64,000 bases of DNA from Bacillota bacterium (GCA_030691505.1 JAUYEG010000087.1:2476-66475), one strand, 5' to 3'. Numbered from the stretch's first letter, positions 13,311 through 55,942 are shown. The notes: generated from the sequence alone by a model not told the origin. A program made the numbers and translations.

Positions 13311-13313
13311 CGC

Positions 13314-14330: not shown

Positions 14331-14331
14331 G

Positions 14332-16296: not shown

Positions 16297-16298
16297 AC

Positions 16299-17474: not shown

Positions 17475-17665
17475 CGCCAGCGCGTCACCCGCGGTGAGGC
17501 CAGGACGAACACCGCCAATCCCACGGCGGCCAGGGTGAGTAAGCTTGGCCAAAGCACCAGAGCAGCCGTCCCGAGCAGGATACCCGCCAGGACACGGAGT
17601 TTCCTCGCAGCCGCCCGGAGGCCCCGCGCAATCCTGCGCACGCCGGATGGAGCGCTCGCCGCCAC
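17471..17665 (-). CDS. small (64 aa) predicted membrane protein, translationally coupled to the GT4 gene
   Basis: GTG start. One strongly hydrophobic span (LAGILLGTAALVLWPSLLTLAAVGLAVFVLA). TGA overlaps the downstream ATG. Confidence 0.3.
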   Translation of the reverse strand: MAASAPSGVRRIARGLRAAARKLRVLAGILLGTAALVLWPSLLTLAAVGLAVFVLASPRVTRWR

Positions 17666-17830
17666 CGCCTCACCCCCTCACCCGTCCCTTCATTGTATGA
17701 GCGAGGCGCTGAGCGGTGAGGAGCGGGCGCCCGAACGCATCAGCCTGCCCGGCACTATAATGGACCACCGATTTGAATGTGGGTTTGCCTGGTGTTTTCT
17801 ACCGGGCGCCCGCGCTGAGGGAGGGTCCCG

Positions 17831-18853: not shown

Positions 18854-18860
18854 GGAGACA

Positions 18861-24695: not shown

Positions 24696-25850
24696 TCAAC
24701 AGGTCGGTACCCCGATATCGGCATGCAGGTAGCCGCCGACCTGCTCGGACGTCTTGACCAGCCCCCGCAGTATCCGCCAGGCCCCCATCGCGTCGTTGAT
24801 ATCGCCCATTTCAACTGGTGAATGCGAGTACCGCCGGGCCAGGGTGATCACGCCCGCGGGGATGCCGTCACGCACCAGGTGCATGGCGGTGGCGTCGGTG
24901 TTGCCGCCGGTGAACGTCGTCACCTGGTACTCGACCCCGGCCGCCCTGGCGGTGTCCTCCAGCAGGCGGCGCACGCCCGGGTTAACCAGGATTCCCTTTC
25001 CCCCGGTGCCCCCGCTCATGACCTGCAAGACCGGCCCACGGCCGATGCCGACCGGCAGTTCCCGGGCGTAGTCGACGTCCGGCGTGTCGCCGCAGGGCAT
25101 CGTATCGAGAGCGATCGCAAGATCCGGGTTGACACGGTGCGCGGCGACGGTAGCACCGCGCAGCCCGACCTCTTCCTGCACCGTGACGACGCCGACCAGC
25201 GTGCCGGCGAACTCCTCGCCGGCCAGCGACTCAAACAGGGCCGCCAGCACGGCGCAGCCCAGCCGGTCGTCCACGGCCTTGCCCGCGAACCGGTCGCCGT
25301 CAGCGAAAAACGTCAGGTCGCTGCGCTGCTCAATCGGGTCGCCGACCCGGATCCCCAGCGCGGCGACGCCTTCGGCGCTCTGCTCGCCCACGTCGATGAA
25401 CAGGTCCGTGTACGGCTTCACCTCGGTCCGCTCCTTGGACGTCTGCAGGTGGCCGGCCTTGACCCCGATGATCCCCAGGTGGCCGCGGATGGTCACCATG
25501 CGTCCGATGAGCAGCGGGTCAAGCATTCCGCCGATCTTGTCAAACCGGACGAAACCGCTCTTTTCAATGCTCTTGACGATTAGGCCGATCTCGTCCGAGT
25601 GAGCGGCGACCATAATTGCCGGTCCCGGCCGCCCGCCGTGCCTGGTGGCGAAGAGGTTGCCCATCGCGTCAACCGCGAGCCGATCCGAGCAGCCGCGCAG
25701 CCGGTCGGCCATATAGCGGGCCACCGGGGCCTCAAACCCCGACACACCCGGGATGGCCGTGAGTTGGACCAGGAGCTCCTTTAGCCGGAGTTTGAGCCTT
25801 TCGTCGGGCCATCCGGCGGTGCCGGGCTGGGGTGCTTCCGATATGGGCAT
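24696..25850 (-). CDS. M42 family aminopeptidase (FrvX/YsdC-like)
   Basis: AAHSDEIGLIV and GKAVDDRLGCA motifs. Confidence 0.85.
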   Translation of the reverse strand: MPISEAPQPGTAGWPDERLKLRLKELLVQLTAIPGVSGFEAPVARYMADRLRGCSDRLAVDAMGNLFATRHGGRPGPAIMVAAHSDEIGLIVKSIEKSGFVRFDKIGGMLDPLLIGRMVTIRGHLGIIGVKAGHLQTSKERTEVKPYTDLFIDVGEQSAEGVAALGIRVGDPIEQRSDLTFFADGDRFAGKAVDDRLGCAVLAALFESLAGEEFAGTLVGVVTVQEEVGLRGATVAAHRVNPDLAIALDTMPCGDTPDVDYARELPVGIGRGPVLQVMSGGTGGKGILVNPGVRRLLEDTARAAGVEYQVTTFTGGNTDATAMHLVRDGIPAGVITLARRYSHSPVEMGDINDAMGAWRILRGLVKTSEQVGGYLHADIGVPTC

Positions 25851-25901
25851 GGGTCTGACTCCTTTCCTGTCGCTTGGTGTAGGATATCCCTGGAATGCGG
25901 G

Positions 25902-26681
25902 ATGCCGGCGGGCAAGCCCCGGCGGCGGCAGACCCCCAGGAGGTGCAGACCTATTTCGCTATCGTCCGCAATCGACCCTCGCGCCCAGGCGGACCGCCCT
26001 TTCCGGGCCCTGATCATCCGCCACGGCCGGACCGAGTACAACCGGTCAAACCAGTTCCGTGGCCGGCTGGACATTCCTCTGGATGAAATCGGCTTGGAGC
26101 AGGCCCAGCGAGTCTGCGAGGTTCTGGCCGGGCCGCCGGAGGGGTGGGGGCCGCCCGTCGCGATCTTCACCAGCCCTCTAACCCGGGCCCGTCAGACCGC
26201 CGCGCCGCTTGCCCTGATCACTGGACTTGAGCCAGTTGTTCACGACGGGCTGCACGATGTGGACGTCGGCGAATGGCAGGGGCGCCCGGGGGATGAGGTC
26301 AAAGCGCAATACCCCGCCGCGTACCGTATGTGGGAGACGGAGCCCGCGGACTTCGTGTTTCCCGGAGGCGAGTCGCTCCGGGCCGCTCAGGACCGCGTGA
26401 TGAGAACCCTGGCGGAGATCCTCAGCCGCTTTCCAGGCCGCACTGTGGCCCTGTTCACGCACAGGGTGCCCGCCAAGCTCCTGATTGCCGGCGTGATGCG
26501 CGCCGGGCCCGAGGCGTTCTGGCGAATGCGCATTGACAACGGTTCGATCAGCGTGGTTGAGTTTGACGGTCGGGACTATGTGCTCACGTTGGCCAACAGC
26601 ACGGCGCATCTGACGGGGGCTGGCGGAGGGGCCGCGGGCGAGGCCGGAGGGGCCGCCTACCGGCGGGCACCCGATTTCTAG
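25902..26681 (+). CDS. histidine phosphatase (phosphoglycerate-mutase-like) family protein
   Basis: RHGRTEYN catalytic motif and FTHR. Start uncertain. Confidence 0.75.
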   Translation: MPAGKPRRRQTPRRCRPISLSSAIDPRAQADRPFRALIIRHGRTEYNRSNQFRGRLDIPLDEIGLEQAQRVCEVLAGPPEGWGPPVAIFTSPLTRARQTAAPLALITGLEPVVHDGLHDVDVGEWQGRPGDEVKAQYPAAYRMWETEPADFVFPGGESLRAAQDRVMRTLAEILSRFPGRTVALFTHRVPAKLLIAGVMRAGPEAFWRMRIDNGSISVVEFDGRDYVLTLANSTAHLTGAGGGAAGEAGGAAYRRAPDF

Positions 26682-26789
26682 TTTCGGAACAAACCGGCCC
26701 CGTGCTCGAGCCCGGCCCCCGTGCCGCCGAGCAGGTCAATCGGCCGGGCGGCGGCGCAGCGACGCCGCAACTGAAGCAGGCTTCATGCT

Positions 26790-26830
26790 GGACTTACCAT
26801 AACGACCGCTGTACAATTGTACGTGTTTGA
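26790..26830 (+). promoter_or_regulatory. putative promoter with a perfect 12-bp palindrome GTACAATTGTAC overlapping a TACAAT -10-like element
   Basis: Read directly from the sequence at 26811-26822, upstream of the ferredoxin ORF. Confidence 0.4.
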
Positions 26831-26854
26831 TTTGGGGGAAAGGGGGAAGACGGA

Positions 26855-27028
26855 GTGGCAGTAACAGTCGATCGTGGTAAATGCAGCGGCTGCGGCACCT
26901 GCGTTGACATCTGCCCGACAGAGGCAATCAAGGTGATCGACAACTTCGCACATGTTACAGAGGCTGACTGCGCCGATTGCGGCACCTGCGTGGATGAGTG
27001 CCCGGAGAAGGCGCTGCTTCTCCCGTAG
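26855..27028 (+). CDS. 2x[4Fe-4S] ferredoxin (57 aa), not listed in the ORF track
   Basis: GTG start after an AAAGGGGGAAG RBS. Translation MAVTVDRGKCSGCGTCVDICPTEAIKVIDNFAHVTEADCADCGTCVDECPEKALLLP contains two CxxCxxCxxxCP motifs. Followed by a Rho-independent terminator. Confidence 0.7.
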   Translation: MAVTVDRGKCSGCGTCVDICPTEAIKVIDNFAHVTEADCADCGTCVDECPEKALLLP

Positions 27029-27080
27029 TCCCGGCAACAATGGCCTCGGGCCCGGGCACCGCTGCCCGAGACGCGCAAAA

Positions 27081-27110
27081 GCCCCGCCAAGCAGCGGGGT
27101 TTTTGGTTTC
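27081..27110 (+). terminator. Rho-independent terminator (CCCCGC-caagca-GCGGGG + TTTTTGGTTT)
   Basis: GC stem-loop followed by a T-rich tract directly after the ferredoxin stop. Confidence 0.6.
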
Positions 27111-27183
27111 TAGCGAATTGCCGGTGATGTCAGCGCCGGCGAGCTTCACTGTCGGACGACATGCCCGGCCGGCTGCTTTCACG

Positions 27184-28209
27184 CTATTTGGTTGAGCGCT
27201 TGACCTCCGGATTTAGAGCCAGCAACCTGTCGACAGTCGTCTCGAACCGGCGGGCCAGGCCGTACAGGGTATCGCCCCGCTGGACGACGTACTGCGCCGT
27301 GTCCGCTCCACCATCATTCCTGATCGATAGGAGGTCGGTCACCCTGACGATGTCGTACCCGCGTCCGAGCAGGTCGTCTATGATCGCCGGCAGAGCCTGA
27401 GCGGTCTCGATTCGTCCCACGTGCATCAGGACAATCCCGCCGTCCTCGACCTTCGTGAGCACGCGGTCGATAATCGCCTGCACACCGCTCGTCTCCATCC
27501 AGTCCAGGCTGTCGACCTGCCACATCACAACCCAGCCGTAGCCGTGGGCCTCAAGGGCCTGCGATACCGCATCGCCGTGCGCACCGTAGGGCGGCCTGTA
27601 GAGAGGCACGAAGGATTCCTCGCCGCCCACGGCGACAAGCGCCTGCTTGCCCTGTGCGATCTCCGCATCGATCTTCTCCGGAGTTTGTTTGACCAGGCCC
27701 TCCGGGTGGGTGTACGAGTGATTGCCGACTTCGTGCCCCTCGGCGAGCATGCGCCGGACGAGATCGGGGTTGTTCTCGATCCACTTGCCGCGCGGGAAAA
27801 ACGTTACCTGCAGGTCGTATCGCTTCAGTACATCAAGCAGAGGGCCGGCGGGCTCCCAAAACCAGCCGCAGTCAAACGTAAGCGCAACGCGCTTCGTGCC
27901 TGCCTCGATGCGGGTGACGGTACGCGGCGGCGTCGGGGTCTCAAACGTCGGCCTCGCCGGTCCACCAGCCGGGATGCGGAGCACCTGTCCAGCATAGATG
28001 ACGTATTCAGACCCCCCCGGATCGCCCGTGGGATCCTGGCTGCCGCCGTCGCCCGTTCCGTCGCCGTTGCCTCTCAGCCAGGGTATCAAATCCCGGTTGG
28101 TCAGCAGGACACCGCCCATGCCGACGATAAAGCACAAGCCAATCACCAAGCCGATGGTTACCGCGCCCGGACGGACAAGCTTTAGCTTGCGTGCAAGCAC
28201 TTGTCCCAC
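27184..28209 (-). CDS. polysaccharide (peptidoglycan) deacetylase, NodB homology domain, with C-terminal LysM domain and N-terminal TM anchor
   Basis: TFDCGW and HSYTHP NodB motifs. C-terminal YVVQRGDTLYGLARRF LysM motif. Confidence 0.8.
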   Translation of the reverse strand: MGQVLARKLKLVRPGAVTIGLVIGLCFIVGMGGVLLTNRDLIPWLRGNGDGTGDGGSQDPTGDPGGSEYVIYAGQVLRIPAGGPARPTFETPTPPRTVTRIEAGTKRVALTFDCGWFWEPAGPLLDVLKRYDLQVTFFPRGKWIENNPDLVRRMLAEGHEVGNHSYTHPEGLVKQTPEKIDAEIAQGKQALVAVGGEESFVPLYRPPYGAHGDAVSQALEAHGYGWVVMWQVDSLDWMETSGVQAIIDRVLTKVEDGGIVLMHVGRIETAQALPAIIDDLLGRGYDIVRVTDLLSIRNDGGADTAQYVVQRGDTLYGLARRFETTVDRLLALNPEVKRSTK

Positions 28210-28293: not shown

Positions 28294-29628
28294 GTGACGC
28301 ACCCACCGGAACTCGTCGATGTGTCAGTGCTCGACCAGTTGGGGCCGCTCGTTCAGTGCCGGCTGCGGTTTCCCCGTCCGCGGCTCGACGATGTGCCCGG
28401 CGAAGTGAAGAGCGCGCTGGCCCGGCTTCCGGCCCTCGGCGGGCTTGAGCAAGGGCAGCGGGTAGCCGTCACGGCGGGCAGTCGCGGCATCACCGGCATC
28501 GCGCCGATTCTCCGCGCCGCCTGCGAGTACCTTCGCACACTGGGCGTCGAGCCGGTCGTGGTGTCGGCGATGGGCAGCCACGGTGGCGGCACCGCCGCCG
28601 GCCAACGGGATCTACTCCGTTCCCTTGGCATCACCGAGGAGGCGTTGGGCGGCACGCCGGTCATCTGTTCAGCCGAAACCGACATCATCGGCCACACCCC
28701 TGACGGTCTGGCGGTGCACGCCGACCGCTTCACAGTCCGCGAGGTGCACGGTGTGCTGGTCGTCAACAGGGTCAAGCCCCACACGGCGTTCCGCGGTCCG
28801 ACCGAGTCAGGCCTGCTCAAGATGCTTGCCGTCGGTCTCGGGCGGCAGCCGGGCGCCACGATCGTCCATTCACGCGGCCCCGGGTCGATGTGCGCGGCCA
28901 TCAGGTCCATGGCCGCGGTTTCGCTCGAAAAGCTGCCGGTGCTGGGCGGGCTGGCGATACTCGAAAACGGCTACGAAGAGACCGCGGAGATCGTGCCGTT
29001 GATGGCCCAGGAATTCCTGTCACGCGAGGAGACTCTGCTCGCCAGGGCGCGCGAGCTGCTCCCCCGGCTGCCGCTGGCGGCCGCGGACATCCTGGTCGTG
29101 GAGCAGATCGGCAAGGAGGTCAGCGGCACCGGGATGGACACCAACATCACCGGGCGTTGGGGCGACAGTGACCCCGGTCCCGAGGCCGGGCCGACGCCCG
29201 GCTTCCGGCGGGTCGTCGTGCTGGACCTGACCCCCTCATCACACGGCAACGCCACCGGGATCGGCCTGGCCGATTTCACGACCGACCGCGTCGTTCAGGC
29301 TATGGACCGGCGGGTCACCTACACCAACTGCCTGACGTCAACGCTCATTGACCGTGCCCGCCTCCCTCTCTTCCTGCCCGACGACCGTCAGGCGCTGGCA
29401 GCCGCGGTGCTTAGCCTGGGGGAGGTGGATCGAGGGCGCGCATCGCTGGTTCAAATTCGCGACACGCTCCACCTTGACGTAATCAGGGTCTCCGCGCACG
29501 TCGTGGGCAAGATGGAGCCGCCCCCAGGTGTGACCGTGGAGGTCGAGGAGCAGCCAGGGGCCTTCCCGATGGGTTTCGACGCCGGGGGGAGGCTTGCGCG
29601 CCTCCCCGCTCCCGAGGCGTCAGGCTAA
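28294..29628 (+). CDS. LarA-like (lactate racemase N-terminal domain, DUF2088) 2-hydroxyacid racemase/epimerase homolog
   Basis: VAVTAGSRGI ... AMGSHG and VKPHTAFRGPTESG segments parallel the LarA DxTR/GTHR and EPHFMAGFSGG regions. This is recall-based, not computed. Confidence 0.55.
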   Translation: MTHPPELVDVSVLDQLGPLVQCRLRFPRPRLDDVPGEVKSALARLPALGGLEQGQRVAVTAGSRGITGIAPILRAACEYLRTLGVEPVVVSAMGSHGGGTAAGQRDLLRSLGITEEALGGTPVICSAETDIIGHTPDGLAVHADRFTVREVHGVLVVNRVKPHTAFRGPTESGLLKMLAVGLGRQPGATIVHSRGPGSMCAAIRSMAAVSLEKLPVLGGLAILENGYEETAEIVPLMAQEFLSREETLLARARELLPRLPLAAADILVVEQIGKEVSGTGMDTNITGRWGDSDPGPEAGPTPGFRRVVVLDLTPSSHGNATGIGLADFTTDRVVQAMDRRVTYTNCLTSTLIDRARLPLFLPDDRQALAAAVLSLGEVDRGRASLVQIRDTLHLDVIRVSAHVVGKMEPPPGVTVEVEEQPGAFPMGFDAGGRLARLPAPEASG

Positions 29629-30647
29629 AGCGCGTAGCGCCGGCGGGCCGAATCCACGATCCTGCCCAGCACGTCGGCCCGGCTGAGGCCCATCGCCCTG
29701 GCCATGGTCCCGATGTAGCTTGCGTGCAGGTGCCGCTCGTTGCCGGTCAGTATCTGCAGCCCGGCAAAGGTATTTATCTCGAGGACCGCCGCCCGGCCGT
29801 CCTCGCCGACGATCGTGTCGACCCGGCCGTAGTCGCGCGCCCCCACCGCCGAAAACGCCCGCATCGCCGTATCCTGCACGGCCTCCAACTGCTCAGCGCT
29901 CAGCCGTGCAGGGCAGTGCATGATCTCGTTATCCATCTTGTGCTCAAACGTGTTGGTGCGCGCGTTGTTGTACTCGATCTCGAGCGGGATCAGGGCTTGC
30001 GGCGGATCGCCGATGACCCCGACCGTGACCTCCCGGCCCTGCAGGTAGGACTCCACCAGGGCCCCCTGGTCCATCCGGCTCACGATGGCTTCTGCCTGGC
30101 GCCGGAGGGAGACCGCGTCGGTAACAATGGAGTCGTCGCTTATTCCCGCGCTGCCGCGGCCCCGCACTGGCTTGACAAAGAGCGGGAAAGCCAGCGGCGG
30201 CGGTGGCGTCCATCCCGGGCCGATCGAACTCAACGGCACCGCGTGCCCCGTGGTGGCGCCGTCCTTCCCGATGGCTATGAACGGGGCGGTATTGACCCCG
30301 TGGCAAGACCACAGCTTCTTCCGTACGGCCTTGTCCAGGGCCACAAGGTCCAGGCCTGATCCGCAGTAGGGGATGCCAAGGGCCTCCAGGAGCGCCACCT
30401 CGGCCAGCGAAGAGGTGTTAAACACCAGTTGCGCCCGCATGCCGCGCAGCGCCGCGACCGTCTCCAGCGGGTCGCCGGCCTGCCATTGCACCAGCTCCGC
30501 CTCGTGGCCGGCCTCCAACAGAGCGTCGCGGTGCAGGCTTGCCTCCTCGATGGCATCGTCAGGCATCTCGCTGCCGGTGTACCTACGCTGCCATTCGACG
30601 TTCCGTCCGGGACGGAACAACACCGCTATCCTCAGTTTGTTTCCCAT
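29625..30647 (-). CDS. D-Ala-D-Ala ligase-family ATP-grasp enzyme with atypical N-terminal substrate region
   Basis: LEALGIPYCGSG, PLFVKPVRGRGSAGI, RVD and VLEINT motifs match the Ddl ATP-grasp core. ATG at MGNKLRIAVLF with a GGAGG RBS. Overlaps the convergent LarA-like gene by 4 nt. Confidence 0.75.
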   Translation of the reverse strand: MGNKLRIAVLFRPGRNVEWQRRYTGSEMPDDAIEEASLHRDALLEAGHEAELVQWQAGDPLETVAALRGMRAQLVFNTSSLAEVALLEALGIPYCGSGLDLVALDKAVRKKLWSCHGVNTAPFIAIGKDGATTGHAVPLSSIGPGWTPPPPLAFPLFVKPVRGRGSAGISDDSIVTDAVSLRRQAEAIVSRMDQGALVESYLQGREVTVGVIGDPPQALIPLEIEYNNARTNTFEHKMDNEIMHCPARLSAEQLEAVQDTAMRAFSAVGARDYGRVDTIVGEDGRAAVLEINTFAGLQILTGNERHLHASYIGTMARAMGLSRADVLGRIVDSARRRYAL

Positions 30648-30724
30648 CTCGCGCCTCCGGTCTCGCCGAGGTCCCCACGCCGGACACTCCGCGCCGGTCC
30701 GGTGTGCCGGTCCCGCGTGCTTGT

Positions 30725-32503
30725 CTAAGCCGATCTGCTGCGGGCTACATCCAGGCACCCGGCGACGCGTCTGGCCTCCGCCACCGGCCGCCCGCTGTCA
30801 TCTGTGGCCCGGCAGGCTCCGTCCACAATCGCAGTGTGTACCGTGCCGCGCGCATGCGCATTGCCCGCCAGGTCGGGGGCGTCAAGCAGCCCGCACTCGA
30901 CCGCTAGGGCGAGCGTCTCGGGGTCGGCCCAGGGGTCGCTAGTGCCTCTCGGCGCCAGCTCGCGCATGGCAGCCAGAAGCAGCCTTGCCTCGCTCAGGAG
31001 CTCGTCCCGCCGGGCGGTGACCCGCCGGTCGCGGGTCATGTCGGGCAGGCCGCGCAACAGGGCGTCGATAACGCCGCCGGCCATGCGCGCGCTTCCGATG
31101 ACGTCACCCGCGCGTGCCGCGTGGCTGGCCTCCGAATAGCCGACGACGTGCACGATATGCGGCCGCATTGCGAGCTGCAGGGCGATGGACCCGCACATGT
31201 GCCCCGCGGCCCGCTCGATCCCCGTTGGAACGCTGGCCAGGCCCGTGCGCGTCTCGCGCCAGATCGCGAATCCGCCGTTCTCCTCGAGCTCTCCCGCCAG
31301 TTCCAGCTTGGCCAGCATCTTGGCCAGATCCATGTCCGGGGCCGTCCCTACAGGGGTGTTGAACATCATCTGGCCGACATAGTCCCGCACGCCCAGCCGC
31401 TTTGCGTTGTACGCCGCAAGAAAGAAGGTCGCGACGGCGACGCTGTCGGGGGCAGCCCGCAGACTCCACTGGTGCGATTCGTTGACCTCGACGGGCACGC
31501 CATGCCCGGCGTGCCAGGAGATGCCGTCCTGGGCCTCGCCGATGGCCTCCCGGAGGCCGCGGTCGCTCCGGCGGTCCAGCACGTTGTACCAGAAAAGGGG
31601 AATCGCGGCCCAGGCGTTATTAATCGTTCGCTGCAGCACATCGGCCATCCGCAGTACATCGCGAGTGCCGCTGTAGCACCGGACAAGCGGCCGGTTGCCG
31701 GTGCGGGTAGCAGAGTAGATCAGGCGGAGGTCGTCTTCGCTGCGAATGGGTACGCCGCCGGCCCCATCCTGGGCGGGGTCCATCTCGGCGGGCCTGAAAA
31801 AGCTTGCCTGCGCGTTCTGGTCCGGCCCCAGCGACAGGACGTCGAGCACCTCCGCTTGGGCAATCTCGCGCGCCCCGCGGACGGTTTCGTCCACTGTCGG
31901 CTGCCCGAAATGGTGACGGATGAGCGGCGCCGGCGCCCTGGCCTTGATCCTCGCGATGAGTGTATCCGGCAACTCCGCCGGCGCAGCTGCCGCCTCGCCG
32001 CCCACCAGGTAGGCGCGGCAGTCGATGTCGCTGGAGCTGCTGCCGAAAGTGGCCTCGAACACCCCCATCCGCGCCGCCACGGCGCAGTTGGGGTCGGTGC
32101 CGCCGAAGACCAGGCGCAGGCCGGCGTCAATACGCGGGCGCAGCCGCGGCACGATGTCGGCCAGCATGCGCTCGAGGGCGTCAGGAGTCAGCCGGTAGCT
32201 GAGGGCGAGTACATCAGGCTCCCACCGCTGCACTTCAGCGACGATCGCCTCCGGCGGCTGGGCCGCGCCGAGAAAGCGCGTCTCAAATCCGGCCTGGTCC
32301 GCGAGAGCCAAGAAACGCCGGACGCCGGCAACGTGAACGCAGTTACCCAGGCAGGTCGCCAGCAGCCGGGCTCGTGACCGCGAAGATCGCCTCGTCAACC
32401 TCAGTGTCTCCTTCCCGAACCAGGTCAAGGACTTCGCTTGGGCTACGGCCGGCGATCCCCATCCGCGCGGCGTTGCGGCCCTCGCGCCTGTAGTCTGTGT
32501 CAT
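30725..32503 (-). CDS. coenzyme-B12-type carbon-skeleton mutase: N-terminal B12-binding-like Rossmann domain fused to a glutamate mutase E (GlmE)-like TIM-barrel
   Basis: N-terminus LLATCLGNCVHVAGVRRFLALADQAGFETRFLG resembles the B12-binding GDxHxxG-...-GfeVi.LG fold, with NCVHVAG in place of DxHxxG. C-terminal SHQWSLRAAPDSVAVATFFLAAYNA and NTPVGTAPDMDLAKMLAKLELAG resemble the GlmE FHQWMGGFPQDESKAFGVI and TPHEAIGIPTKEANAAG segments. The track start overlaps the upstream gene by ~160 nt, so the true start is probably internal. Confidence 0.55.
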   Translation of the reverse strand: MTQTTGARAATPRGWGSPAVAQAKSLTWFGKETLRLTRRSSRSRARLLATCLGNCVHVAGVRRFLALADQAGFETRFLGAAQPPEAIVAEVQRWEPDVLALSYRLTPDALERMLADIVPRLRPRIDAGLRLVFGGTDPNCAVAARMGVFEATFGSSSSDIDCRAYLVGGEAAAAPAELPDTLIARIKARAPAPLIRHHFGQPTVDETVRGAREIAQAEVLDVLSLGPDQNAQASFFRPAEMDPAQDGAGGVPIRSEDDLRLIYSATRTGNRPLVRCYSGTRDVLRMADVLQRTINNAWAAIPLFWYNVLDRRSDRGLREAIGEAQDGISWHAGHGVPVEVNESHQWSLRAAPDSVAVATFFLAAYNAKRLGVRDYVGQMMFNTPVGTAPDMDLAKMLAKLELAGELEENGGFAIWRETRTGLASVPTGIERAAGHMCGSIALQLAMRPHIVHVVGYSEASHAARAGDVIGSARMAGGVIDALLRGLPDMTRDRRVTARRDELLSEARLLLAAMRELAPRGTSDPWADPETLALAVECGLLDAPDLAGNAHARGTVHTAIVDGACRATDDSGRPVAEARRVAGCLDVARSRSA

Positions 32504-33515
32504 GCATCGCTGATGCCAGGGCGATCATCGCGTTGATGGTCGGTGTGCCTATCCCAGCGATGCGTCCCAGCGCCGAAATCGGCACCAGGCTGGCCGGCAC
32601 GTCCTCCCAGATGTAGCGGTGGTTGAGGTGCGCCGGGGCCCGGATGCCGGCGTAGCCGGGATTGTTGAGGACGGCCTCGCGGAGCGTCGCTCCCTCGGCG
32701 CCGTACGCTTCGCCAAGCCAATCGAGCGCTGACCGCGCACGTACGCCGTAGGCCCGGGCGACGTCCACCCGTTCGCTGTCGATCTGCTCGATAATCCGGG
32801 CCACCGTTGGGGTTATGCCCTCCAGGTAGTAGTCAAACTCTCCGCCCGTCGCCTCGATGTGCGCCGCGTTGAGCAGGGTGACTCCGGGATGGAAGACGGC
32901 GCCCATATTGTCGAGGCCGGTCTCCAGCACGCAACTGGCCGCGTAGAACTGTGGAAAGGCCGGGTTAAGGGCCGCGAGAACCCGCGGCGTGTCATCGGCC
33001 GGCAGGGCGGCCAGCGGCACGAATCGTTTGACGCTGAACACGCGGCAGGTTCCGTCGGCCTCCGCACGGCTGGCGAAAAGGAGTGTCTGGGCCTCCGCGA
33101 CAATGACGCCGCGCGGTGCACCGTCCTCCGTGAGGGCATGGCGGACCTCGAGGGCGCCTCCGGTCCGGCCGGGATTGAGCACGATGATCTGCCCTGGCTG
33201 GACCAACGGGGCCAGCATCTCGGCAAGCTCTCGGTGCGCAGTGGCAGGCACGACGACCATCAGAACGCGCGCACCGCTCACGGCCGCCTCAAGATCGGTG
33301 GTAACGAGGCTCGGTCTGGCGAAACCTGCGACCGACCCGGTCAAGGTGATGCCCCCACGCCGCCAGAGCGGCGCCAGCCGGAGCGGCGAGCGGTTAAACA
33401 GGCGGACCTCGTGGCCCTGTAATGCCAGGCAGCCTGCCATGGCCTGTCCGCCGCTGCCGGCACCGATGACCGCATAGACGCTTTTATGCACGCTCGAACC
33501 CCCTCTCAGCCAAGA
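32343..33515 (-). CDS. NAD(P)-dependent opine dehydrogenase family protein (octopine/nopaline-DH-like)
   Basis: N-terminal VYAVIGAGSGGQAMAG Rossmann motif and overall similarity to opine-DH/ApbA-like folds. Start likely MSWLRGG (33515) rather than the track start at 33596. Confidence 0.7.
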   Translation of the reverse strand, partial: SWLRGGSSVHKSVYAVIGAGSGGQAMAGCLALQGHEVRLFNRSPLRLAPLWRRGGITLTGSVAGFARPSLVTTDLEAAVSGARVLMVVVPATAHRELAEMLAPLVQPGQIIVLNPGRTGGALEVRHALTEDGAPRGVIVAEAQTLLFASRAEADGTCRVFSVKRFVPLAALPADDTPRVLAALNPAFPQFYAASCVLETGLDNMGAVFHPGVTLLNAAHIEATGGEFDYYLEGITPTVARIIEQIDSERVDVARAYGVRARSALDWLGEAYGAEGATLREAVLNNPGYAGIRAPAHLNHRYIWEDVPASLVPISALGRIAGIGTPTINAMIALASAMHDTDYRREGRNAARMGIAGRSPSEVLDLVREGDTEVDEAIFAVTSPAAGDLPG

Positions 33516-34080
33516 CATGACGGGCGCTGTGCGGTCGTACGGAACGGGCTGTACACCGTTGCCGGGCCGCGGCAATGCAACGCAAATGCGGGCCAATCGA
33601 CCGACATGCGCCGGAACACGAAGCCTGAGGCGACCACTGGCTGGGGAGGTTGGGTCGGACCGAGAACACGCCCTAGGGGGCGCACCGCGGAGGTCGAGGC
33701 GGGCCGGCCGACTACTGCGCCGGTTACCCGCTTCGCGGACCCACCTCCTCCTTCAACGCTTACGAGGTTAGCTGACGGGCTCGGGTCGAAAGAGTGTGAC
33801 CCTATGCGGTCTGCGCTCTGCCGTCCCGATGTTTGGCCGGCTGCGCTTCCCGCGATTAGCCCCTACTGCCCTGGTTCCCCCGTTCCCCCGCCCAGGCGGG
33901 GGATTAAGCGATTAAGGTGGTGGCTGTTATTGCATCACCATCTTAGCATTAACTTGCGCCAACAGTCAAAGAGACCCATGCGCGTTGGCTGTCGAATACT
34001 GGCGATAGCTGGGCCAACGATGCGTCGTTGGGCGGCATACCTGCAAGGGTGCGGTTTCCCCCGTTTTCGCGTGGCTAGCT

Positions 34081-34434
34081 ATGATGACGATGCCAGCGAT
34101 ATCACGGACCTGGCCGGGTGAGGGAGTCATACGGATGCGCGACTGGCCGGAACTGGTGGATGCCTTGGGCGTCCTCGCCCGCGGGGACCGGGTGCTCGAG
34201 GCGGGCACGGGCAGGGGGGCGATGCTCGAGTACCTGCTCCGGCTGCTGAGCATGCGCCGCGCCGCCGAGCCCTGGCTCGGGATCCCGTCATTGGTCACCC
34301 TCGCCGCCGATCCAGCCGCCCGCAGCCTCGGCCAGGGCCCGCTGCCTGCGGCTGCCCGGCGATGTCGCCCAATCGGTCACAGTCGTGGAGGCCGAGCTTA
34401 CCGAGTACGTGGTTGGTCCGTGCCCGCGCTTTGA
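34081..34434 (+). pseudogene. possible remnant of a class-I SAM-dependent methyltransferase (isolated motif I only)
   Basis: VLEAGTGRGAMLEYL resembles SAM-binding motif I. There is no RBS and no further motifs. It lies in a 1.1-kb non-coding gap. Confidence 0.2.
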
Positions 34435-34583
34435 GCTGCTGGCCACCCTCGTGGCTGGCCCGCCGGCTTGAGGCTGCCGGTTTCTCTTCGATTTCCTGGG
34501 TTGCCGACGAGCGGCAGCACCCGCGCTCGCCTGAGACCCTGTCCGAGCTGCTCTCCTCCGCCCCGCTTACCGCCCTCCCTTGC

Positions 34584-34617
34584 CCGCCCGGACACCCGCC
34601 CGGACACCCGCCCGGCG
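34584..34617. repeat. tandem 12-mer CCCGCCCGGACA, about 2.5 copies
   Basis: Read directly from the sequence, upstream of the GGDEF/HD-GYP gene. Confidence 0.6.
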
Positions 34618-34755
34618 CAAGCTGTCTCAGAAACAAGCGTTCCCGTGGGTTAAAATACCAGGTCTCGCCCCCGAAACATTGTACAGGCACTTTTGGCGGA
34701 CTCTGCGCCTTACGCCCGTTTCGATGGCCGGACGCGCCCGCTGGGAGGGAACACC

Positions 34756-37700
34756 GTGGAGCAAGGCTCGACCGCCTTCGCACTCGGGAAGATTGCGAAA
34801 CAGTCCGACCTGAATGCAGCAATGGAAGCTACGGTTGACGCCGTGGTTAGCTTGCTTGCCCCCGACCATGCGGGTCTTTACCTGCAGGATTGGGGATCGG
34901 GACGCCTGGTGCTGGCTGCCCGCAACACATCACTTGACCCCGCAATACAGCTCGGACTGAAACTCAGGGCAAACGAGGGTCCGATCGGGCAGGCGTTTGC
35001 GTCTTGCCGTGCCCGGTGCGACAGCTACGACTTCCGGGGGGACGCGGTCCCCCCGCAGGGCGTGTCGCCCACTACCCGTTCTCACCTTGTCCAGCCCCTG
35101 ATGGACGGCGAGACGCCGGTCGGCGTGCTTGAGGCCCAAGCCGGGCGCCCGGGGGCCTTCGACTCCAGCGCGGCCGCCACCCTTGCCCTCGTTTCCCGCA
35201 ACGCCGCCCGGTCTCTGCGGTTCGCACTCGGGGTCCGCCAGGAGGCGGTGCGGTCACGCTTGGTGGGTAGCCTACTCGACGCCGCAGTCACCGGCGCCGT
35301 GTTTGTCGACCGGGAGGGCTGGGTAAGGCACGCGAGCGGCCGCCTTCTGGCCATGCTTGGCTTGGAGTCTAACGGCCGCGGCGGCCCGACCGGACGGACG
35401 TATCGCCGTTTCTTCTGGCCCCGGCTTGCCGCCAGGCTCGACCGGCCGTCGCGCTATCCCCCCGCCAAGGTCGCTCGCGCGGTAATCGAAGGGCGCGAGC
35501 TCGAGGAGGACATGTGCCTGTCAGGCCCGGTTGAGATGACCATCCGCCGCCGGTGCGTGCCCGTCCGGGACGACGAAGGACGTATTGCGGGCCGTATCGA
35601 GATCTATGAGGATGTCACGGCCGAACGACGCGCCGCGCGCAGGCTGGAGGCCTCGGCCTCGATAGCCCGGGCCTTGACCGCGAGCTTCGATCTCACCAGC
35701 ATTTTCGCCGGTCTGACCCACGGGCTCTCGGCTGCGGTGGAGTTTGATGCGGCCATCTGCTACATACGCGGAGTCGGGGGCGCCGTCCGCATAGCGCGCC
35801 TTGACCCGCGTTTCCCCGACAGCCCCGTGCTGGAGGAAACCGACCGCCCTGCAGCGCCCGGCGGCTGCTGCTGCCCGGAAGGGTCCGCACTGGTCACCTC
35901 CGACCTCCTGGCCGAGGGCCCCCTGCGCGGCCCGGCGGCTGAACTGCGGGCTCTGGGCATGAAGCAGGTGTGTGTGCTGCCTCTCGCTGTCGGCGAAACC
36001 CGCTGCGGGATTATGGCTGTGGGATTGGCCCGGCCTGTGCCGCGCTACAGCCAGGCGACCCTTGACACACTGGTGCCCCTGGCGGAATTCCTTTCCCTGG
36101 CAGTCAACAACGCCGTGTTGTTTGAGGAGGCGACCTCCAGCGGTGAGGCCGCGCGCGAGGAGGCCGTCTGGGCCTCGGCCCTGCTGGATATGGCCCGCGC
36201 CGTGGCGAGCAGCCCGGGGCCGCATGAGACCTGCGCGGCCGGGGCCGACGTCCTGCGCCGGCTGTTCGATCACCGGTGGGCCCTGATCGCACTCAGGGAC
36301 AGCAGCCGCGACGTGTACGTCGTCGGGCATGCGGACTTCGAGCGCTACAGCGCACCGTGCCGCGAATTCGATCTCAGCCCAGCCATCGCCGTGCTCATCG
36401 AGGCGGCTTCGGCAGGCGCCCGAGTACTCACAGTAACTGGTCCGGAGGTGGGGCCCGACCTGCCGCCCGGCACGGCGTCGTTGGCCGTCGCACCGCTGTG
36501 CTCGGCGGATGACCTCATCGGGGGCGTGATCCTGGGCTTTGCCCACGGCCGCGGACTCGCGGGTGAGCGGGAACAGGCAATACTCCTGGGCCTGGCCGAC
36601 CAGATGGCTCTTGGTGTCCAGCAGGCCGGCCTTCTCGCCGCCGCAAAGCAGCAGGCCAGCCTGCTTGCCGGCATCAGCCGCGCCAGCAGGCGTCTTACCT
36701 CCAGCCTGGACCTGGAAACCGTGCTGGACGAGGTAATCGGCTTCCTCACGCGGGACCAGGGAGCAGACTGGGTAGGGATCTACCTGAAGGACAAGGGGAC
36801 CGGCGATCTGATGCTGCGTGCGCACGGCGGCCGCTTTGCGCCACTGGTGGCGCCGGGCGAGCGCATTCCGTTGGGTCGGGGGCTGATCGGCGCCGCCGCG
36901 GGCGACGGGCAGCCGGTGATAGCCAACGATGTTTCTGTCGACAGCCGCTTCGTTGGCGCCCCCGGCAATCCGACTCAGGCTGAAATGTGCGTTCCCCTCA
37001 AGTTCAACGACCAGATCCTCGGCGTCCTCAACGTCGAGTCGGCGCGCAGAAACGCCTTCGGCGACCGCGAGCTACAGGTGGTAGAGACGCTGTCGGACCA
37101 CCTTGCCATCGCCATCAACAACGCCGACCTGTACCAGCACATCCGGCGTCTGCACCTTGCGACGACCCAATCGCTGGTCAGGGCCATGGAGGCCCGCGAC
37201 CCGTACGCGCGCGGACACGGCGCGCGTGTCTCGGAATACGCCGTGGCCATCGGGTGCCGGCTGGGGCTCAACACGCCCGACGTCGAGGAACTCCGACTGG
37301 CCGGGCTGCTCCACGACGTCGGCAAGGTCGTCGTGGAGGACCGCGTGCTTGCCAAACGGGGGCCCCTCGATTCCGTGGAAAGGGCCCTGGTAATGGAGCA
37401 CTCCGTCGCCGGGGCCGGCATCCTGCGCCGGACGGAGGCCCTCGCCGCCCTTGCGCCGCTGGTCCGCTGGCATCATGAGTGGTACGGGGGCGGGGGGTAC
37501 CCTGACGGGATCAAGGACGACGACATCCCCGTCGGGTCGCGAATCCTGGCCGTCGCCGATGCCTTCGACGCCATGACGTCCGACCGGCCCTACCGTACCG
37601 CGCTCCCGATCGACGAGGCGGAGGAACGGTTGCGGGCCGGGCAATACACGCAGTTTGATCCGGCGGCGGCGCAGGCTTTCCTCGCCGTGCTCGCGGAGGC

Positions 37701-38838
37701 CCGGCAGTGCGGGAGTCCCCTCTGGCGCGATCTGCAGCAGCGCGTCGAGGCAAGCCGGGAGGCGGGCGGCATGCCAGTTGCCGGCCGGGGCAGCCCGGAC
37801 CAGCCCGGCCGGATCCTGCCCGTTCACGGCAGGGCGCTCAACGTGATGTACCGCGTGTCCCTTGAGACTGGCAGCATCCTGCAGCGCCAGCAGCTCCTGC
37901 AGCGAATCCTGGGGATCCTGCACGACACGATGGGCAAGCACAAATACGTCATACTGCTCGCCGAACCCGACTCAAACGATTTGCTCATCGAGGCGGAGAT
38001 CGGATTCGGCAGTTCCCATCACAGGTACAGGATACCGGCAGGGAGGGGAGTCACCGGGTGGGTGGCGGAGCAGGGTGTCCCGCTCCTCGTCAAGGATGTT
38101 GAGAACGACCCGCGCTATATCGCCGGACCGTCGTCGGGCATCCGTTCCGAACTGGCTGTTCCCCTGATCGCCAGGGGCCGGGTAATCGGGGTGCTCGACA
38201 TCGAATCGGAGGTGCCCAACGCATTCACCACGGAGGACCTGTACCTGATCTCCGCGGTCGCCGGCCAGATCTCGACCGCCATCGAGGTCTCTCAACAGCA
38301 CGAACAGGTCGCCCGCGCAGCCATCGTCGACGGTTTGACAGGGCTCTACAACCACTCGTACTTCTACCGACGGCTTGAGGAGGAAATGGCCCGAAGCAAG
38401 CGCCATGGTCGTCCACTCGTCGTAGGTATTGCGGATGTCGACAAGCTAAAAGAGGTCAACGATGAGTACGGCCATCTGGCAGGCGATGCGGTGCTACGCG
38501 AGATCGCGGCCTGCCTCCGCGCCATGCTGCGCAAGTCGGACATTGTCGCCCGCTACGGAGGCGACGAGTTCGGGCTGATCATGCCGGACACGGACCTCCC
38601 CGACGCCGGGATGATCTCTCAGAGGTTTCAGGCAGAGCTTCACTCACGCCTCATTAAGACCGACAAGCACGAAATTACCCTGCCCACCCTGGCTCTGGGC
38701 CTGGCCGTCTTCCCCCTTGAGGGTGACTCCCCGGACGCGCTCGTGAGTAAGGCGGACGAGCGGCTCTACGTCCAAAAGGGCTCCGGTCGATCCTCCGGCC
38801 CGAGCCACCTTGAGCTGCGTGTGACGCGCACCGCCTGA
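34756..38838 (+). CDS. multidomain c-di-GMP signalling protein: GAF-PAS-GAF-GAF-GAF-HD-GYP-GAF-GGDEF
   Basis: HD-GYP motifs LLHDVGK and HHEWYGGGGYP. Intact GGDEF (RYGGDEFGL) with an RKSD I-site. Several GAF-like segments. GTG start with RBS GGGAGGG. The track start at 34693 is an extension. Confidence 0.85.
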   Translation: MEQGSTAFALGKIAKQSDLNAAMEATVDAVVSLLAPDHAGLYLQDWGSGRLVLAARNTSLDPAIQLGLKLRANEGPIGQAFASCRARCDSYDFRGDAVPPQGVSPTTRSHLVQPLMDGETPVGVLEAQAGRPGAFDSSAAATLALVSRNAARSLRFALGVRQEAVRSRLVGSLLDAAVTGAVFVDREGWVRHASGRLLAMLGLESNGRGGPTGRTYRRFFWPRLAARLDRPSRYPPAKVARAVIEGRELEEDMCLSGPVEMTIRRRCVPVRDDEGRIAGRIEIYEDVTAERRAARRLEASASIARALTASFDLTSIFAGLTHGLSAAVEFDAAICYIRGVGGAVRIARLDPRFPDSPVLEETDRPAAPGGCCCPEGSALVTSDLLAEGPLRGPAAELRALGMKQVCVLPLAVGETRCGIMAVGLARPVPRYSQATLDTLVPLAEFLSLAVNNAVLFEEATSSGEAAREEAVWASALLDMARAVASSPGPHETCAAGADVLRRLFDHRWALIALRDSSRDVYVVGHADFERYSAPCREFDLSPAIAVLIEAASAGARVLTVTGPEVGPDLPPGTASLAVAPLCSADDLIGGVILGFAHGRGLAGEREQAILLGLADQMALGVQQAGLLAAAKQQASLLAGISRASRRLTSSLDLETVLDEVIGFLTRDQGADWVGIYLKDKGTGDLMLRAHGGRFAPLVAPGERIPLGRGLIGAAAGDGQPVIANDVSVDSRFVGAPGNPTQAEMCVPLKFNDQILGVLNVESARRNAFGDRELQVVETLSDHLAIAINNADLYQHIRRLHLATTQSLVRAMEARDPYARGHGARVSEYAVAIGCRLGLNTPDVEELRLAGLLHDVGKVVVEDRVLAKRGPLDSVERALVMEHSVAGAGILRRTEALAALAPLVRWHHEWYGGGGYPDGIKDDDIPVGSRILAVADAFDAMTSDRPYRTALPIDEAEERLRAGQYTQFDPAAAQAFLAVLAEARQCGSPLWRDLQQRVEASREAGGMPVAGRGSPDQPGRILPVHGRALNVMYRVSLETGSILQRQQLLQRILGILHDTMGKHKYVILLAEPDSNDLLIEAEIGFGSSHHRYRIPAGRGVTGWVAEQGVPLLVKDVENDPRYIAGPSSGIRSELAVPLIARGRVIGVLDIESEVPNAFTTEDLYLISAVAGQISTAIEVSQQHEQVARAAIVDGLTGLYNHSYFYRRLEEEMARSKRHGRPLVVGIADVDKLKEVNDEYGHLAGDAVLREIAACLRAMLRKSDIVARYGGDEFGLIMPDTDLPDAGMISQRFQAELHSRLIKTDKHEITLPTLALGLAVFPLEGDSPDALVSKADERLYVQKGSGRSSGPSHLELRVTRTA

Positions 38839-51619: not shown

Positions 51620-51630
51620 GTGGTCAAGAC

Positions 51631-53631: not shown

Positions 53632-53643
53632 GGGGGAGCCGGT

Positions 53644-55839: not shown

Positions 55840-55856
55840 GACATCGTCCCGTTGGA

Positions 55857-55882: not shown

Positions 55883-55942
55883 CGCGGCGGGGCCTGCCGA
55901 GAGGTCACGCAAGACGTTTGCGGAGGAGGCTGATTTGTTCCG

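Follow-up and report, generated by a model that had tools for sequence, protein, structure and literature searches.

Organization of the locus

The analysed window comprises 64,000 nucleotides of a Bacillota genome (GCA_030691505.1, JAUYEG010000087.1:2476-66475). The four open reading frames described in the first-pass annotation were all present in it at the positions given, and coding-type GC3 values of about 0.83 were determined for each of them. HMM searches gave the same families for the products: an opine dehydrogenase (ODH), a B12-type mutase, a Ddl-family ATP-grasp ligase and a LarA-like isomerase. The genes of the first three lie head-to-tail on the minus strand at 32343-33518, 30725-32398 and 29625-30647, respectively, and were borne out as one unit. 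The 5' end of the mutase gene overlaps the 3' end of the ODH gene by 56 nt, and the two would be translationally coupled. The LarA-like gene (28294-29628, plus strand) converges on the ligase gene, and the 4-nt overlap reported between them (29625-29628) is real. Upstream of the ODH gene, a c-di-AMP riboswitch aptamer (33742-33920, minus strand) and a promoter candidate (33940-33969, minus strand) were found. No described pathway combining the ODH, B12 mutase, ligase and LarA-like enzyme families was found in the searchable literature, as had been supposed.

Opine dehydrogenase

The maximal ORF of the ODH spans 32343-33596 (minus strand). Its likely start is ATG at 33518 or GTG at 33491, the latter being preceded by GAGGGGG. 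The protein contains a Rossmann domain and PF02317 (Octopine_DH, 8.5e-48) and matches Arthrobacter CENDH (1bg6) over the full length with an E-value of 1e-86. The catalytic H202, R292 and D297 are present and were invariant across 82 sequences. The signature of the mODHs (R111, G198, R35, Q136, M197, F201) is also found in the window ODH; among the B12-linked ODH sequences R111 was conserved in 81/82, G198 in 82/82 and R35 in 77/82. The identity of the window ODH was 43% to ArODH and 46% to mODH-48, and the six assayed mODHs were 46-51% identical to the B12-linked ODHs.

The residues Arg111 and Gly198 (ArODH positions) have been shown to turn ArODH from an enzyme for apolar substrates into one for L-Asp (Telek et al. 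2024, PMC10787698). The mODHs turn over L-Asp or L-Glu and pyruvate with NADPH, with Arg35 as the NADPH determinant (PMC10787698). From the conserved residues we infer that the B12-linked ODHs are NADPH-type enzymes specific for acidic L-amino acids and pyruvate. The enzyme would reductively condense an Asp/Glu-type amino acid with pyruvate, resulting in an N-(1-D-carboxyethyl) amino acid. As the kcat/KM values of the mODHs with L-Asp are low, 0.04-1.5 s-1 mM-1 (PMC10787698), Asp and Glu may stand in for a different natural substrate, such as 3-methylaspartate. The likeness to the mODHs and to ArODH/CENDH (1BG6) thus comprises full-length homology, the catalytic His/Arg/Asp, R111/G198 and R35. 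However, the mODHs were described as isolated biocatalysts without genomic context or physiological role (Telek et al. 2024), whereas the window ODH is encoded by the first gene of a riboswitch-preceded operon with a B12 mutase.

B12-dependent mutase

The maximal ORF of the mutase (30725-32503, minus strand) encodes 592 aa. The probable true start is TTG at 32398, located behind GGAAGGAG and shared with a 94%-identical orthologue (P0001), which gives a protein of 557 aa. A B12-binding Rossmann domain (PF02310, 3.3e-11) was detected at the N-terminus. Of the base-off/His-on signature DxHxxG...SxL...GG, the His and Gly are conserved together with 'SYRL' and 'FGG' motifs, and where the cobalt-ligand motif DxHxxG has Asp a nearly invariant Cys is found (CxHxxG; G-D/N-C-V-H-V-A-G).

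No Pfam match was obtained for the C-terminal 400 aa of the window mutase, and Met_asp_mut_E (PF06368) gave nothing with this protein even at E<=1. With the orthologues P0010 and P0021, PF06368 scored 28.5 and 29.4 bits, respectively (gathering score 26.6), and P0025 and P0106 fell just below. The AF2 model of the mutase (pLDDT 91.6) matched GlmE best, and the modelled TIM barrel was assigned to the GlmE fold; glutamate mutase was the nearest fold, followed by lysine and ornithine aminomutases. A 'GTxD' motif and a C-terminal 'AxExGxLDxP' motif are common to the mutase and GlmE. The designation of the protein as a GlmE-like mutase fusion was right, although Pfam alone misses it here. The B12 protein is predicted, from sequence and model, to be an AdoCbl-dependent mutase of the GlmE fold.

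In source annotations the B12 protein appears as 'methionine synthase' or 'methylmalonyl-CoA mutase cobalamin-binding subunit', and its B12 domain does resemble those of corrinoid proteins. A role as corrinoid methyltransferase or methionine synthase in place of a radical mutase is very improbable. An acs/CFeSP/RACo cluster occurs in the same window, indicating that the organism uses corrinoids.

The known glutamate mutase, GlmS/GlmE with GlmL/MutL, is an AdoCbl-dependent isomerase of (S)-glutamate and (2S,3S)-3-methylaspartate. In contrast, the window mutase is a single polypeptide whose B12 domain is N-terminal; it has the Cys-type cobalt-ligand motif and about 15% identity to GlmE. Two substrate-binding residues of GlmE, R149 and E171 (C. 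cochlearium numbering), are not conserved: in low-confidence profile alignments R149 aligned with an invariant Tyr of the mutase family and E171 with a small variable residue within AWxAxPLxWY. These equivalences are tentative because the hhalign probabilities were low.

The partners differ as well. Glutamate mutase is accompanied by methylaspartase, whereas the partner of the window mutase is always an opine dehydrogenase, and a GlmL gene is missing from most loci. Neither MutL nor methylaspartase genes were detected in the window, and neither recurred across 86 loci. MutL was found fused to the mutase in three orthologues (P0387, P0389, P0396); in the sole fusion contig examined, that of P0389 (L092), the mutase-MutL/GlmL fusion directly follows the ODH gene.

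The mutase would catalyze a radical 1,2-rearrangement of the type X-CH2-CH2-COO- <-> X-CH(CH3)-COO-. Its substrate is most likely the N-alkylated (opine) form, since the mutase no longer has the residue with which GlmE binds the free amino group.

ATP-grasp ligase and alternative third enzymes

The maximal ORF of the ligase spans 29625-30758 (minus strand); the likely start is ATG at 30647, resulting in 340 aa, the same as in the orthologues. Orthologous ligases are encoded at the equivalent place in L005-L009 and L029. The ligase resembles D-Ala-D-Ala ligase and VanA in the ATP-grasp fold, the Dala_Dala_lig_C domain (1.5e-25) and the ATP/Mg2+ residues K144, K215, R255, E270 and N272, which are all kept. 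The substrate site has diverged: Gly stands in place of the D-Ala-binding S150, Y216 has been lost by deletion, and the N-terminal part carries an insertion close to E15. The protein scored below every NCBIfam Ddl/Van cutoff (best 113 bits vs 243). A genuine D-Ala-D-Ala ligase was rejected on the basis of this score and of the D-Ala1 triad Glu15/Ser150/Tyr216, which is not preserved.

The VanH/VanA depsipeptide analogy of the first-pass annotation is weak because Ser150 and Tyr216 are missing. In other genomes AsnB takes the place of the ligase. The comparison with pyrrolysine synthesis proved formal only. The order mutase, Ddl-like ATP-grasp ligase, dehydrogenase recalls PylB/PylC/PylD, but homology is found at the ATP-grasp level only: PylB is a radical-SAM enzyme while the window mutase is of the B12/GlmE type, PylD is not an opine dehydrogenase, and the gene order and partners are unlike those of the Pyl system.

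An AsnB-like gene, overlooked earlier as an alternative at the third step, lies directly downstream of the ODH-mutase pair in 30/81 loci. ATP-grasp genes were found downstream in 8/81 and upstream in 7/69 loci, and a third gene adjoining the pair was missing in 31/69. The ATP-grasp ligase and the AsnB-type amidotransferase were mutually exclusive, with no co-occurrence across the loci. In one relative (P0374) the mutase is fused to a RimK/GSH-S-type ATP-grasp domain and encoded between an ODH gene and a class-I GATase gene. By their scores the AsnB-like neighbours pass as genuine asparagine synthetases, and they could be products of housekeeping genes.

The ligase step is predicted from sequence to be a carboxylate amidation or ligation, in which one carboxylate would be converted to an amide. 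The third enzyme would be interchangeable, activating a carboxylate with ATP and forming an amide. This role would fall to a Ddl-like ATP-grasp ligase in the window and, in other loci, to an AsnB-type glutamine amidotransferase or to a mutase-fused RimK/GSH-S-type ATP-grasp domain with a class-I GATase behind it.

c-di-AMP riboswitch and promoter

The operon leader matched RF00379 (ydaO/yuaA leader) over the full model, 1-134, with 77.9 bits (E 2e-16), the gathering score being 38. By covariance model this element is a c-di-AMP riboswitch aptamer, with c-di-AMP as the predicted ligand; it had escaped the first reading. With nhmmer, 31 related non-redundant loci were found to carry it with unchanged position and strand, namely 29 of the 44 Bacillota-labelled loci and 2 unlabelled ones. 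In each of them it lies 5' of the operon's first gene. In the Rfam re-test of 14 of these 31 loci, all 14 were above the gathering score. No RF00379 element was found elsewhere in the 1.43 Mb scanned. As the riboswitch is missing from 15/44 Bacillota loci and from every other phylum, c-di-AMP control is not universal.

Downstream of the aptamer, neither a terminator-like site before the ODH start nor a clear expression platform was detected, and the leader fold was not distinctive (z -1.4). About 20 nt upstream of the riboswitch there is a sigma-70-like promoter candidate (TTGACT, 18 nt, TG-TAAGAT), assigned by consensus match alone. It was the sole promoter-like site in 29400-34700, where shuffles expect 0.4.

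Genes known to be under c-di-AMP riboswitches encode K+ and amino-acid transporters, cell-wall hydrolases and proteins with osmoprotectant functions. The window resembles the ydaO/kimA-type regulon in its full-length aptamer in the operon 5' leader, kept in the orthologous Bacillota loci, and differs from it in that the riboswitch precedes an ODH/B12-mutase operon. No such operon was reported in the c-di-AMP regulon in the searchable literature, which was without Block 2010 and Nelson 2013. The Bacillota operon would be a member of this regulon, expressed at low c-di-AMP, and control of this kind points to an osmolyte or K+ counter-ion role.

LarA-like neighbour

The LarA-like protein (444 aa) was assigned to NCBIfam NF052515, 'nickel pincer cofactor-dependent isomerase, group 22', with 461 bits against a cutoff of 400. 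The window copy had no Pfam match; weak Lar_N matches were obtained in homologues only. The invariant H96, H163, K176 and H192 are spaced as H108, H174, K184 and H200 of LarA and are presumably the two catalytic His, the NPN-binding Lys and the Ni-binding His, respectively.

The four enzymes had been regarded as one pathway, in which the LarA-like racemase would supply a D-2-hydroxy acid to the Ddl-like ligase or epimerise an intermediate for it, leading to a depsipeptide or opine product. The gene does abut the ligase gene with the short overlap, and every relative with a B12 protein of about 69% identity or more keeps it beside the ligase gene (L005, L008 and L089, and also the contigs common to P0003/P0242, P0004/P0243 and P0018/P0250). 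However, it was seen only at this level of identity. Among the 86 non-redundant loci (L001-L087) it was absent from 84 and adjacent in L005 and L008, with L089 as a further close relative; all four genes occur in this arrangement in a single narrow lineage only. Four loci with an orthologous ligase (L006, L007, L009, L029) lack it, as do about 80 others. The genes of an M42 peptidase, a His phosphatase and a deacetylase-LysM protein are also syntenic in the same clade, so the adjacency is explained by descent of the whole neighbourhood. Furthermore, the gene is convergent, which makes co-transcription with the operon impossible; distant group-22 homologues lie in sugar-acid/hydroxy-acid clusters or beside Fe-ADH; and no larB/C/E genes were found in the 64-kb window. 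A pathway of four enzymes is therefore unlikely, and LarA does not hold as a member of it. The LarA-like gene is a lineage-specific, separately transcribed convergent neighbour and not a conserved module member. In place of the proposed quartet, the functional unit is the trio of ODH, B12 mutase and ligase.

Distribution of the ODH-mutase pair

In 79/86 non-redundant loci the ODH gene immediately preceded the B12 gene in the same orientation, usually overlapping it. This co-localization is far beyond chance. The loci span Bacillota, Planctomycetota, Bacteroidota, Ignavibacteria, Aminicenantes, Gemmatimonadota, Armatimonadota, Dehalococcoidia and archaea, the archaeal carriers being Methanomicrobia, Thermococci and Thermoproteota MAGs. 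As a two-gene module the ODH-mutase core is ancient and widespread.

The archaeal carriers bear on the suggestion that an unusual D-centre amino acid is made or amidated for peptidoglycan or spore cortex, as with Ddl or the AsnB-type amidation of mDAP. The Ddl- and AsnB-family partners are compatible with this, and c-di-AMP riboswitches control cell-wall enzymes too. Wall-related genes also lie nearby: the deacetylase-LysM gene in the window, Amidase_3 in L001, PBP5/LytR in L003 and Mur ligase/FemAB in L007 and L092. These, however, vary by locus and none is recurrent, and the ligase is without the D-Ala-binding residues. Since the pair occurs in archaea, which are without murein, a general cell-wall or cortex function is improbable.

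The carriers are mostly fermentative anaerobes, which would suit a catabolic module: the mutase and an oxidative ODH would degrade an acidic or N-carboxyalkyl amino acid (an opine or glycation product) in a variant of methylaspartate or aminomutase fermentation. The nearest folds of the mutase all belong to fermentation enzymes, and ODH reactions are reversible. In contrast, methylaspartase, mesaconase, thiolase-type and transporter genes are not recurrent in the neighbourhoods, and the sole recurrent third genes spend ATP on amide formation. The preference of the mODHs for NADPH corresponds to the biosynthetic direction, and c-di-AMP riboswitches control mainly K+/osmolyte and cell-wall genes. 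Degradation is thus rather doubtful as the function of the pair.

Discussion

We favour the reading that 29625-33969 (minus strand) is a single operon of promoter, c-di-AMP riboswitch, ODH, B12 mutase and ATP-grasp ligase, which would produce a rearranged, amidated acidic opine with an osmolyte or counter-ion role. The probability of this reading is estimated at roughly 55%. The product may serve osmotic or K+/glutamate homeostasis as a compatible solute or counter-ion drawn from the Glu/Asp pool.

The same family and neighbourhood, not recognized in the first-pass annotation, were predicted without function as a new family of B12-dependent proteins by Zhang, Rodionov, Gelfand and Gladyshev (2009, BMC Genomics 10:78; PMC2667541) in a sample of 11 genomes from 4 lineages. 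The assignment to the GlmE fold, the riboswitch, the ODH specificity and the fusions are absent from that description, and together with the occurrence of the family in at least 596 species, archaea included, they extend it.

Gene content of the operon

The window had a G+C content of about 67%, with the genes set apart by a GC3 of about 0.83. All four ORFs named in the first-pass annotation were found: a LarA-like gene of 444 aa (28294-29628, plus strand) and, on the minus strand, an ATP-grasp ligase (29625-30758; Dala_Dala_lig_C, 1.5e-25), a B12 protein with an N-terminal B12-binding domain (30725-32503) and an opine dehydrogenase (ODH; 32343-33596; Octopine_DH, 8.5e-48). The LarA-like and ligase genes do overlap tail to tail by 4 nt. 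The profile-HMM searches proposed earlier matched the Octopine_DH, Dala_Dala_lig_C, B12-binding and LarA-type families in the window; Met_asp_mut_E was reached only by some orthologues of the B12 protein, which exceeded its Pfam gathering score. The LarA-like protein had no Pfam match and scored 461 bits against a cutoff of 400 with NF052515, "nickel pincer cofactor-dependent isomerase, group 22"; no definition of "group 22" was found in the LarA superfamily literature searched. The likely start of the B12 protein is TTG 32398, behind GGAAGGAG, resulting in 557 aa as in the 94%-identical homologue P0001. The ligase probably starts at ATG 30647 (340 aa, matching its orthologues), and the ODH is likely to start at ATG 33518 or GTG 33491.

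A c-di-AMP riboswitch, overlooked in the first-pass annotation, was detected with Rfam at full length (RF00379; 33742-33920, minus strand; 77.9 bits, E 2e-16), between a promoter-like site (33969-33940, minus strand) and the ODH start. The same element was located ahead of the operon in Caldanaerobacter, Thermoanaerobacter, Symbiobacterium, Caldinitratiruptor, Limnochordales and many MAGs. In Caldanaerobacter subterraneus and Thermoanaerobacter (L003, L012, L023) it is followed by the ODH and B12 genes, in some cases together with AsnB. With nhmmer, 32 of the 87 loci fetched were positive, 31 of them non-redundant. The element was invariably in the coding orientation and ahead of the first gene, even where an ATP-grasp gene precedes the ODH, and no further match was found in 1.43 Mb. 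Besides the window aptamer, all 14 related loci re-tested (14/14) were confirmed with Rfam. Among the loci labelled Bacillota, 29 of 44 had the element; loci of other phyla had none. Other Rfam families (cobalamin, T-box and amino-acid riboswitches) were not found in riboswitch-negative Bacillota, non-Bacillota or archaeal loci. Neither an intrinsic terminator 3' of the aptamer nor an expression platform was recognised.

Conservation of the ODH-B12 pair

In a scan of one genome per species, the B12 protein was found in at least 596 species at 46–56% identity. The carriers among the matches listed were Bacillota, Planctomycetota, Bacteroidota, Ignavibacteria, Aminicenantes, Gemmatimonadota, Armatimonadota, Dehalococcoidia, Methanomicrobia, Thermococci and Thermoproteota. 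The neighbourhood comparison called for in the first-pass annotation upheld the pairing: the ODH gene was immediately 5' of the B12 gene, on the same strand and often overlapping, in 79 of 86 non-redundant loci. Clustering of the neighbourhoods of these 86 loci resulted in no fourth recurrent family and no transporter, methylaspartase, adenosyltransferase or regulator.

The LarA-like gene had been counted as a pathway member. It adjoined the operon only in the closest relatives (loci L005, L008 and L089 and the contigs of homologues P0003, P0004 and P0018), where the B12 identity was at least about 69% and the entire neighbourhood syntenic; at 61–64% B12 identity, loci with an orthologous ligase were without it. 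Distant members of the LarA-like family were located in a sugar-acid cluster or beside an Fe-ADH, and the window protein itself had a 100%-identical counterpart, annotated as hypothetical, in a Bacillota MAG. Since the adjacency is limited to syntenic close relatives, the quartet is, as judged from these neighbourhoods, explained by descent, and the functional unit is the ODH-B12 pair with a variable third gene. The observation of the four genes was confirmed and its interpretation supported in part: the cluster stands as the ODH, mutase and ligase trio with its riboswitch, without the fourth gene. The window copy is an ordinary member of the ODH-mutase module.

Other genes of the window

An M42 aminopeptidase, a histidine phosphatase and a polysaccharide deacetylase-LysM protein (24696-28209) were syntenic with the operon only in close relatives (L005, L089). 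Divergent from the operon, a 1381-aa signalling protein with PAS, four GAF, HD-GYP and GGDEF domains (34693-38838, plus strand) was found, also in the syntenic L005. A 117-aa ORF (34081-34434, plus strand) had no Pfam match; inspection of its sequence showed VLEAGTGRG, a motif of class-I methyltransferases; as L089 encodes a full-length methyltransferase of 262 aa at the corresponding place, the ORF may be a truncated remnant. The window also carried fatty-acid synthesis genes for FabF (ketoacyl synthase), ACP and FabD (acyl transferase) (338-2914, minus strand) and a glycan or nucleotide-sugar cluster (9291-24102) with two NTP-transferases, several GT4 glycosyltransferases, an APH-like kinase, a fused SIS_2-HAD protein resembling GmhA-GmhB of heptose synthesis, and large ORFs without a Pfam match at 14332-16296 and 18861-19925. 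A complete Wood-Ljungdahl acs cluster (50043-63626, plus strand) comprised DUF3786, CooC, CODH (Prismane), ACS (CdhC), the large and small CFeSP subunits (CdhD), the RACo corrinoid activase, a second CooC, the AcsE pterin-binding methyltransferase and HdrC/B-like proteins. Due to this cluster, the host is, by its gene content, a corrinoid-using anaerobe.

The B12 protein

Sequence methods recognised only the B12 domain in the window copy. Structure prediction, likewise suggested earlier for the mutase, resulted in a confident AlphaFold2 model from 52 homologues (pLDDT 91.6), with the GlmE-type fold as the best match, followed by lysine 5,6-aminomutase (27.2), ornithine 4,5-aminomutase (27.0) and acyl-CoA mutases (about 22). 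The MetH and pterin-binding barrels matched the model at only about 14. The name "methionine synthase", carried by many records, and a methyltransferase role were rejected. A PLP-dependent aminomutase was also rejected because the B12 domain contains no invariant Lys.

The family profile was compared with a GlmE alignment seeded with E. coli O157 GlmE, at low statistical support. The GTxD and C-terminal AxExGxLDxP motifs were common to both in this low-support alignment, in which R149 of GlmE aligned with an invariant Tyr of the B12 family and E171, which binds the free amino group of the substrate in GlmE, with a small residue. As the alignments are statistically weak, these residue equivalences are tentative; counterparts of GlmE R66 and R100 could not be placed due to the low probability of the local hhalign alignments. 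The cobalt-ligand motif of the family is G-D/N-C-V-H-V-A-G, i.e., CxHxxG versus DxHxxG, and spans C20-G25 in the window protein (557-aa numbering). The Cys is conserved in at least 90% of the family, and the canonical Asp is shifted or missing, being Asn in the window copy.

A fusion search covering 1.84 billion representatives identified three orthologues with a C-terminal domain of MutL/GlmL, the reactivase of glutamate mutase; one of them (L092, 6001-9801, 1266 aa) directly follows an ODH gene. At L093 (1174-3765, 863 aa) the mutase carries a C-terminal RimK/GSH-S-type ATP-grasp domain, with an ODH gene immediately 5' and a Peptidase_C26/GATase (class-I glutamine amidotransferase) gene after it. 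It was concluded that the B12 protein is a predicted adenosylcobalamin (AdoCbl) radical isomerase, homologous to GlmE and with a different substrate pocket. Further proteins of 600–635 aa (P0403, P0406, P0411, P0432, P0435, P0440 and others) matched only profile positions of about 140–550, with 200–330 bits; mostly without a recognisable B12 domain, they may form a family of paralogues whose N-terminus differs.

Predicted specificity of the ODH

The window ODH aligned over its full length with the Arthrobacter enzyme CENDH/ArODH (PDB 1BG6; E 1e-86, 43% identity). Six metagenomic ODHs (mODHs) from hot springs use L-Asp and L-Glu, and also cysteate and 2-aminopimelate, with pyruvate and mostly NADPH; the substitutions A111R and N198G shift ArODH from apolar substrates to L-Asp, and R35 marks NADPH use (Telek et al. 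2024, PMC10787698). In the window ODH these positions are R111, G198 and R35, and Q136, M197 and F201 are present as well. In a survey of 82 sequences, 80 being B12-linked ODHs, R111 was conserved in 81, G198 in all 82 and R35 in 77, with H202, R292 and D297 invariant. The B12-linked ODHs were 46–51% identical to mODH-48. On the basis of the mODH-type residues and homology, the partner ODHs are predicted to convert acidic L-amino acids into their N-(1-D-carboxyethyl) derivatives. As the kcat/KM of the mODHs for Asp is low (PMC10787698), the true substrate may be a related compound, e.g., 3-methylaspartate.

The ligase and the interchangeable third gene

The window ATP-grasp protein scored far under all NCBIfam Ddl/Van cutoffs. 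It retained the ATP/Mg2+ residues of DdlB (K144, K215, R255, E270, N272); a genuine D-Ala-D-Ala ligase function was rejected due to the S150 to Gly replacement, the Y216 deletion and an insertion near E15. An AsnB-type amidotransferase gene was directly 3' of the B12 gene in 30 of 81 loci; these neighbours passed TIGR01536 and about reached NF006949. A Ddl-family ATP-grasp gene was 3' in 8/81 loci or 5' of the ODH in 7/69. The two types did not occur together in any of the 86 non-redundant loci, and neither was present in 31 of 69. This mutual exclusion, the mutase-ATP-grasp fusion and the GATase gene following it point to a third step in which a carboxylate would be converted to an amide with ATP. 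A single operon at L029 (7642-12757) consisted of the riboswitch, ATP-grasp, ODH, B12 and a second ATP-grasp gene; the 5' copy was the more Ddl-like of these two Ddl-family proteins (193 versus 93 bits to PRK01372).

Discussion

To our knowledge, all carbon-skeleton B12 mutases interconvert X-CH2-CH2-COO- and X-CH(CH3)-COO-. In the proposed pathway, the ODH would condense a Glu- or Asp-type amino acid with pyruvate, and the mutase would rearrange the opine so formed, either in its acidic side chain or in its carboxyethyl arm. An N-alkylated tricarboxylate as the mutase substrate would fit both the absence of the amino-binding Glu and the large number of invariant Arg residues. The order may also be reversed, with the free amino acid rearranged by the mutase before the ODH step. 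With the ODH acting first, one carboxylate of the rearranged opine would then be amidated by the ligase or AsnB. Low c-di-AMP is a signal of K+ or osmotic stress; on this basis, the pathway would draw on the glutamate/aspartate pool to make a compatible solute or counter-ion. A catabolic role, a cell-wall role and a four-gene pathway are all less probable. In the most far-reaching reading, the B12 protein would be the first AdoCbl "opine mutase", acting on an ODH-made N-alkylated (secondary-amine) acidic amino acid and, with the amidating enzyme, yielding a new class of opine-amide compatible solutes or K+ counter-ions that is switched on at low c-di-AMP; we give this reading a chance of about one in four.

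The B12 family was described as "always adjacent" to octopine/nopaline dehydrogenase, with Ddl and Asn synthase nearby and no function given (Zhang et al. 2009, PMC2667541); the searchable literature after that report added nothing on the family and its neighbourhood. Combinations of ODH with glutamate mutase, B12, ATP-grasp, adenosylcobalamin or c-di-AMP riboswitch were found only in Zhang 2009 and Telek 2024 in the literature searched. The predicted GlmE fold with an altered pocket, the MutL and ATP-grasp fusions, the predicted mODH-type specificity of all partner ODHs, the mutually exclusive choice of third gene, the riboswitch ahead of the operon and the breadth of the family, archaea included, appear to be new.

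We know of only a handful of AdoCbl isomerases, and a further, uncharacterised one, present in at least 596 species and about 50% identical between archaea and bacterial phyla, would bring a new reaction to B12 enzymology. The ODH-mutase pairing provides a physiological setting for the "acidic" ODHs, so far treated as biocatalysts only. Through its riboswitch the system lends itself to experiments: the operon is predicted to be induced at low c-di-AMP (salt or K+ stress) in Thermoanaerobacter and Caldanaerobacter, both of them cultivable, so that comparative metabolomics should reveal the product. The c-di-AMP regulon would widen from transport to solute biosynthesis and, if the opine-mutase reading is true, the spread of the module over bacteria and archaea would represent an ancient osmoadaptation pathway.
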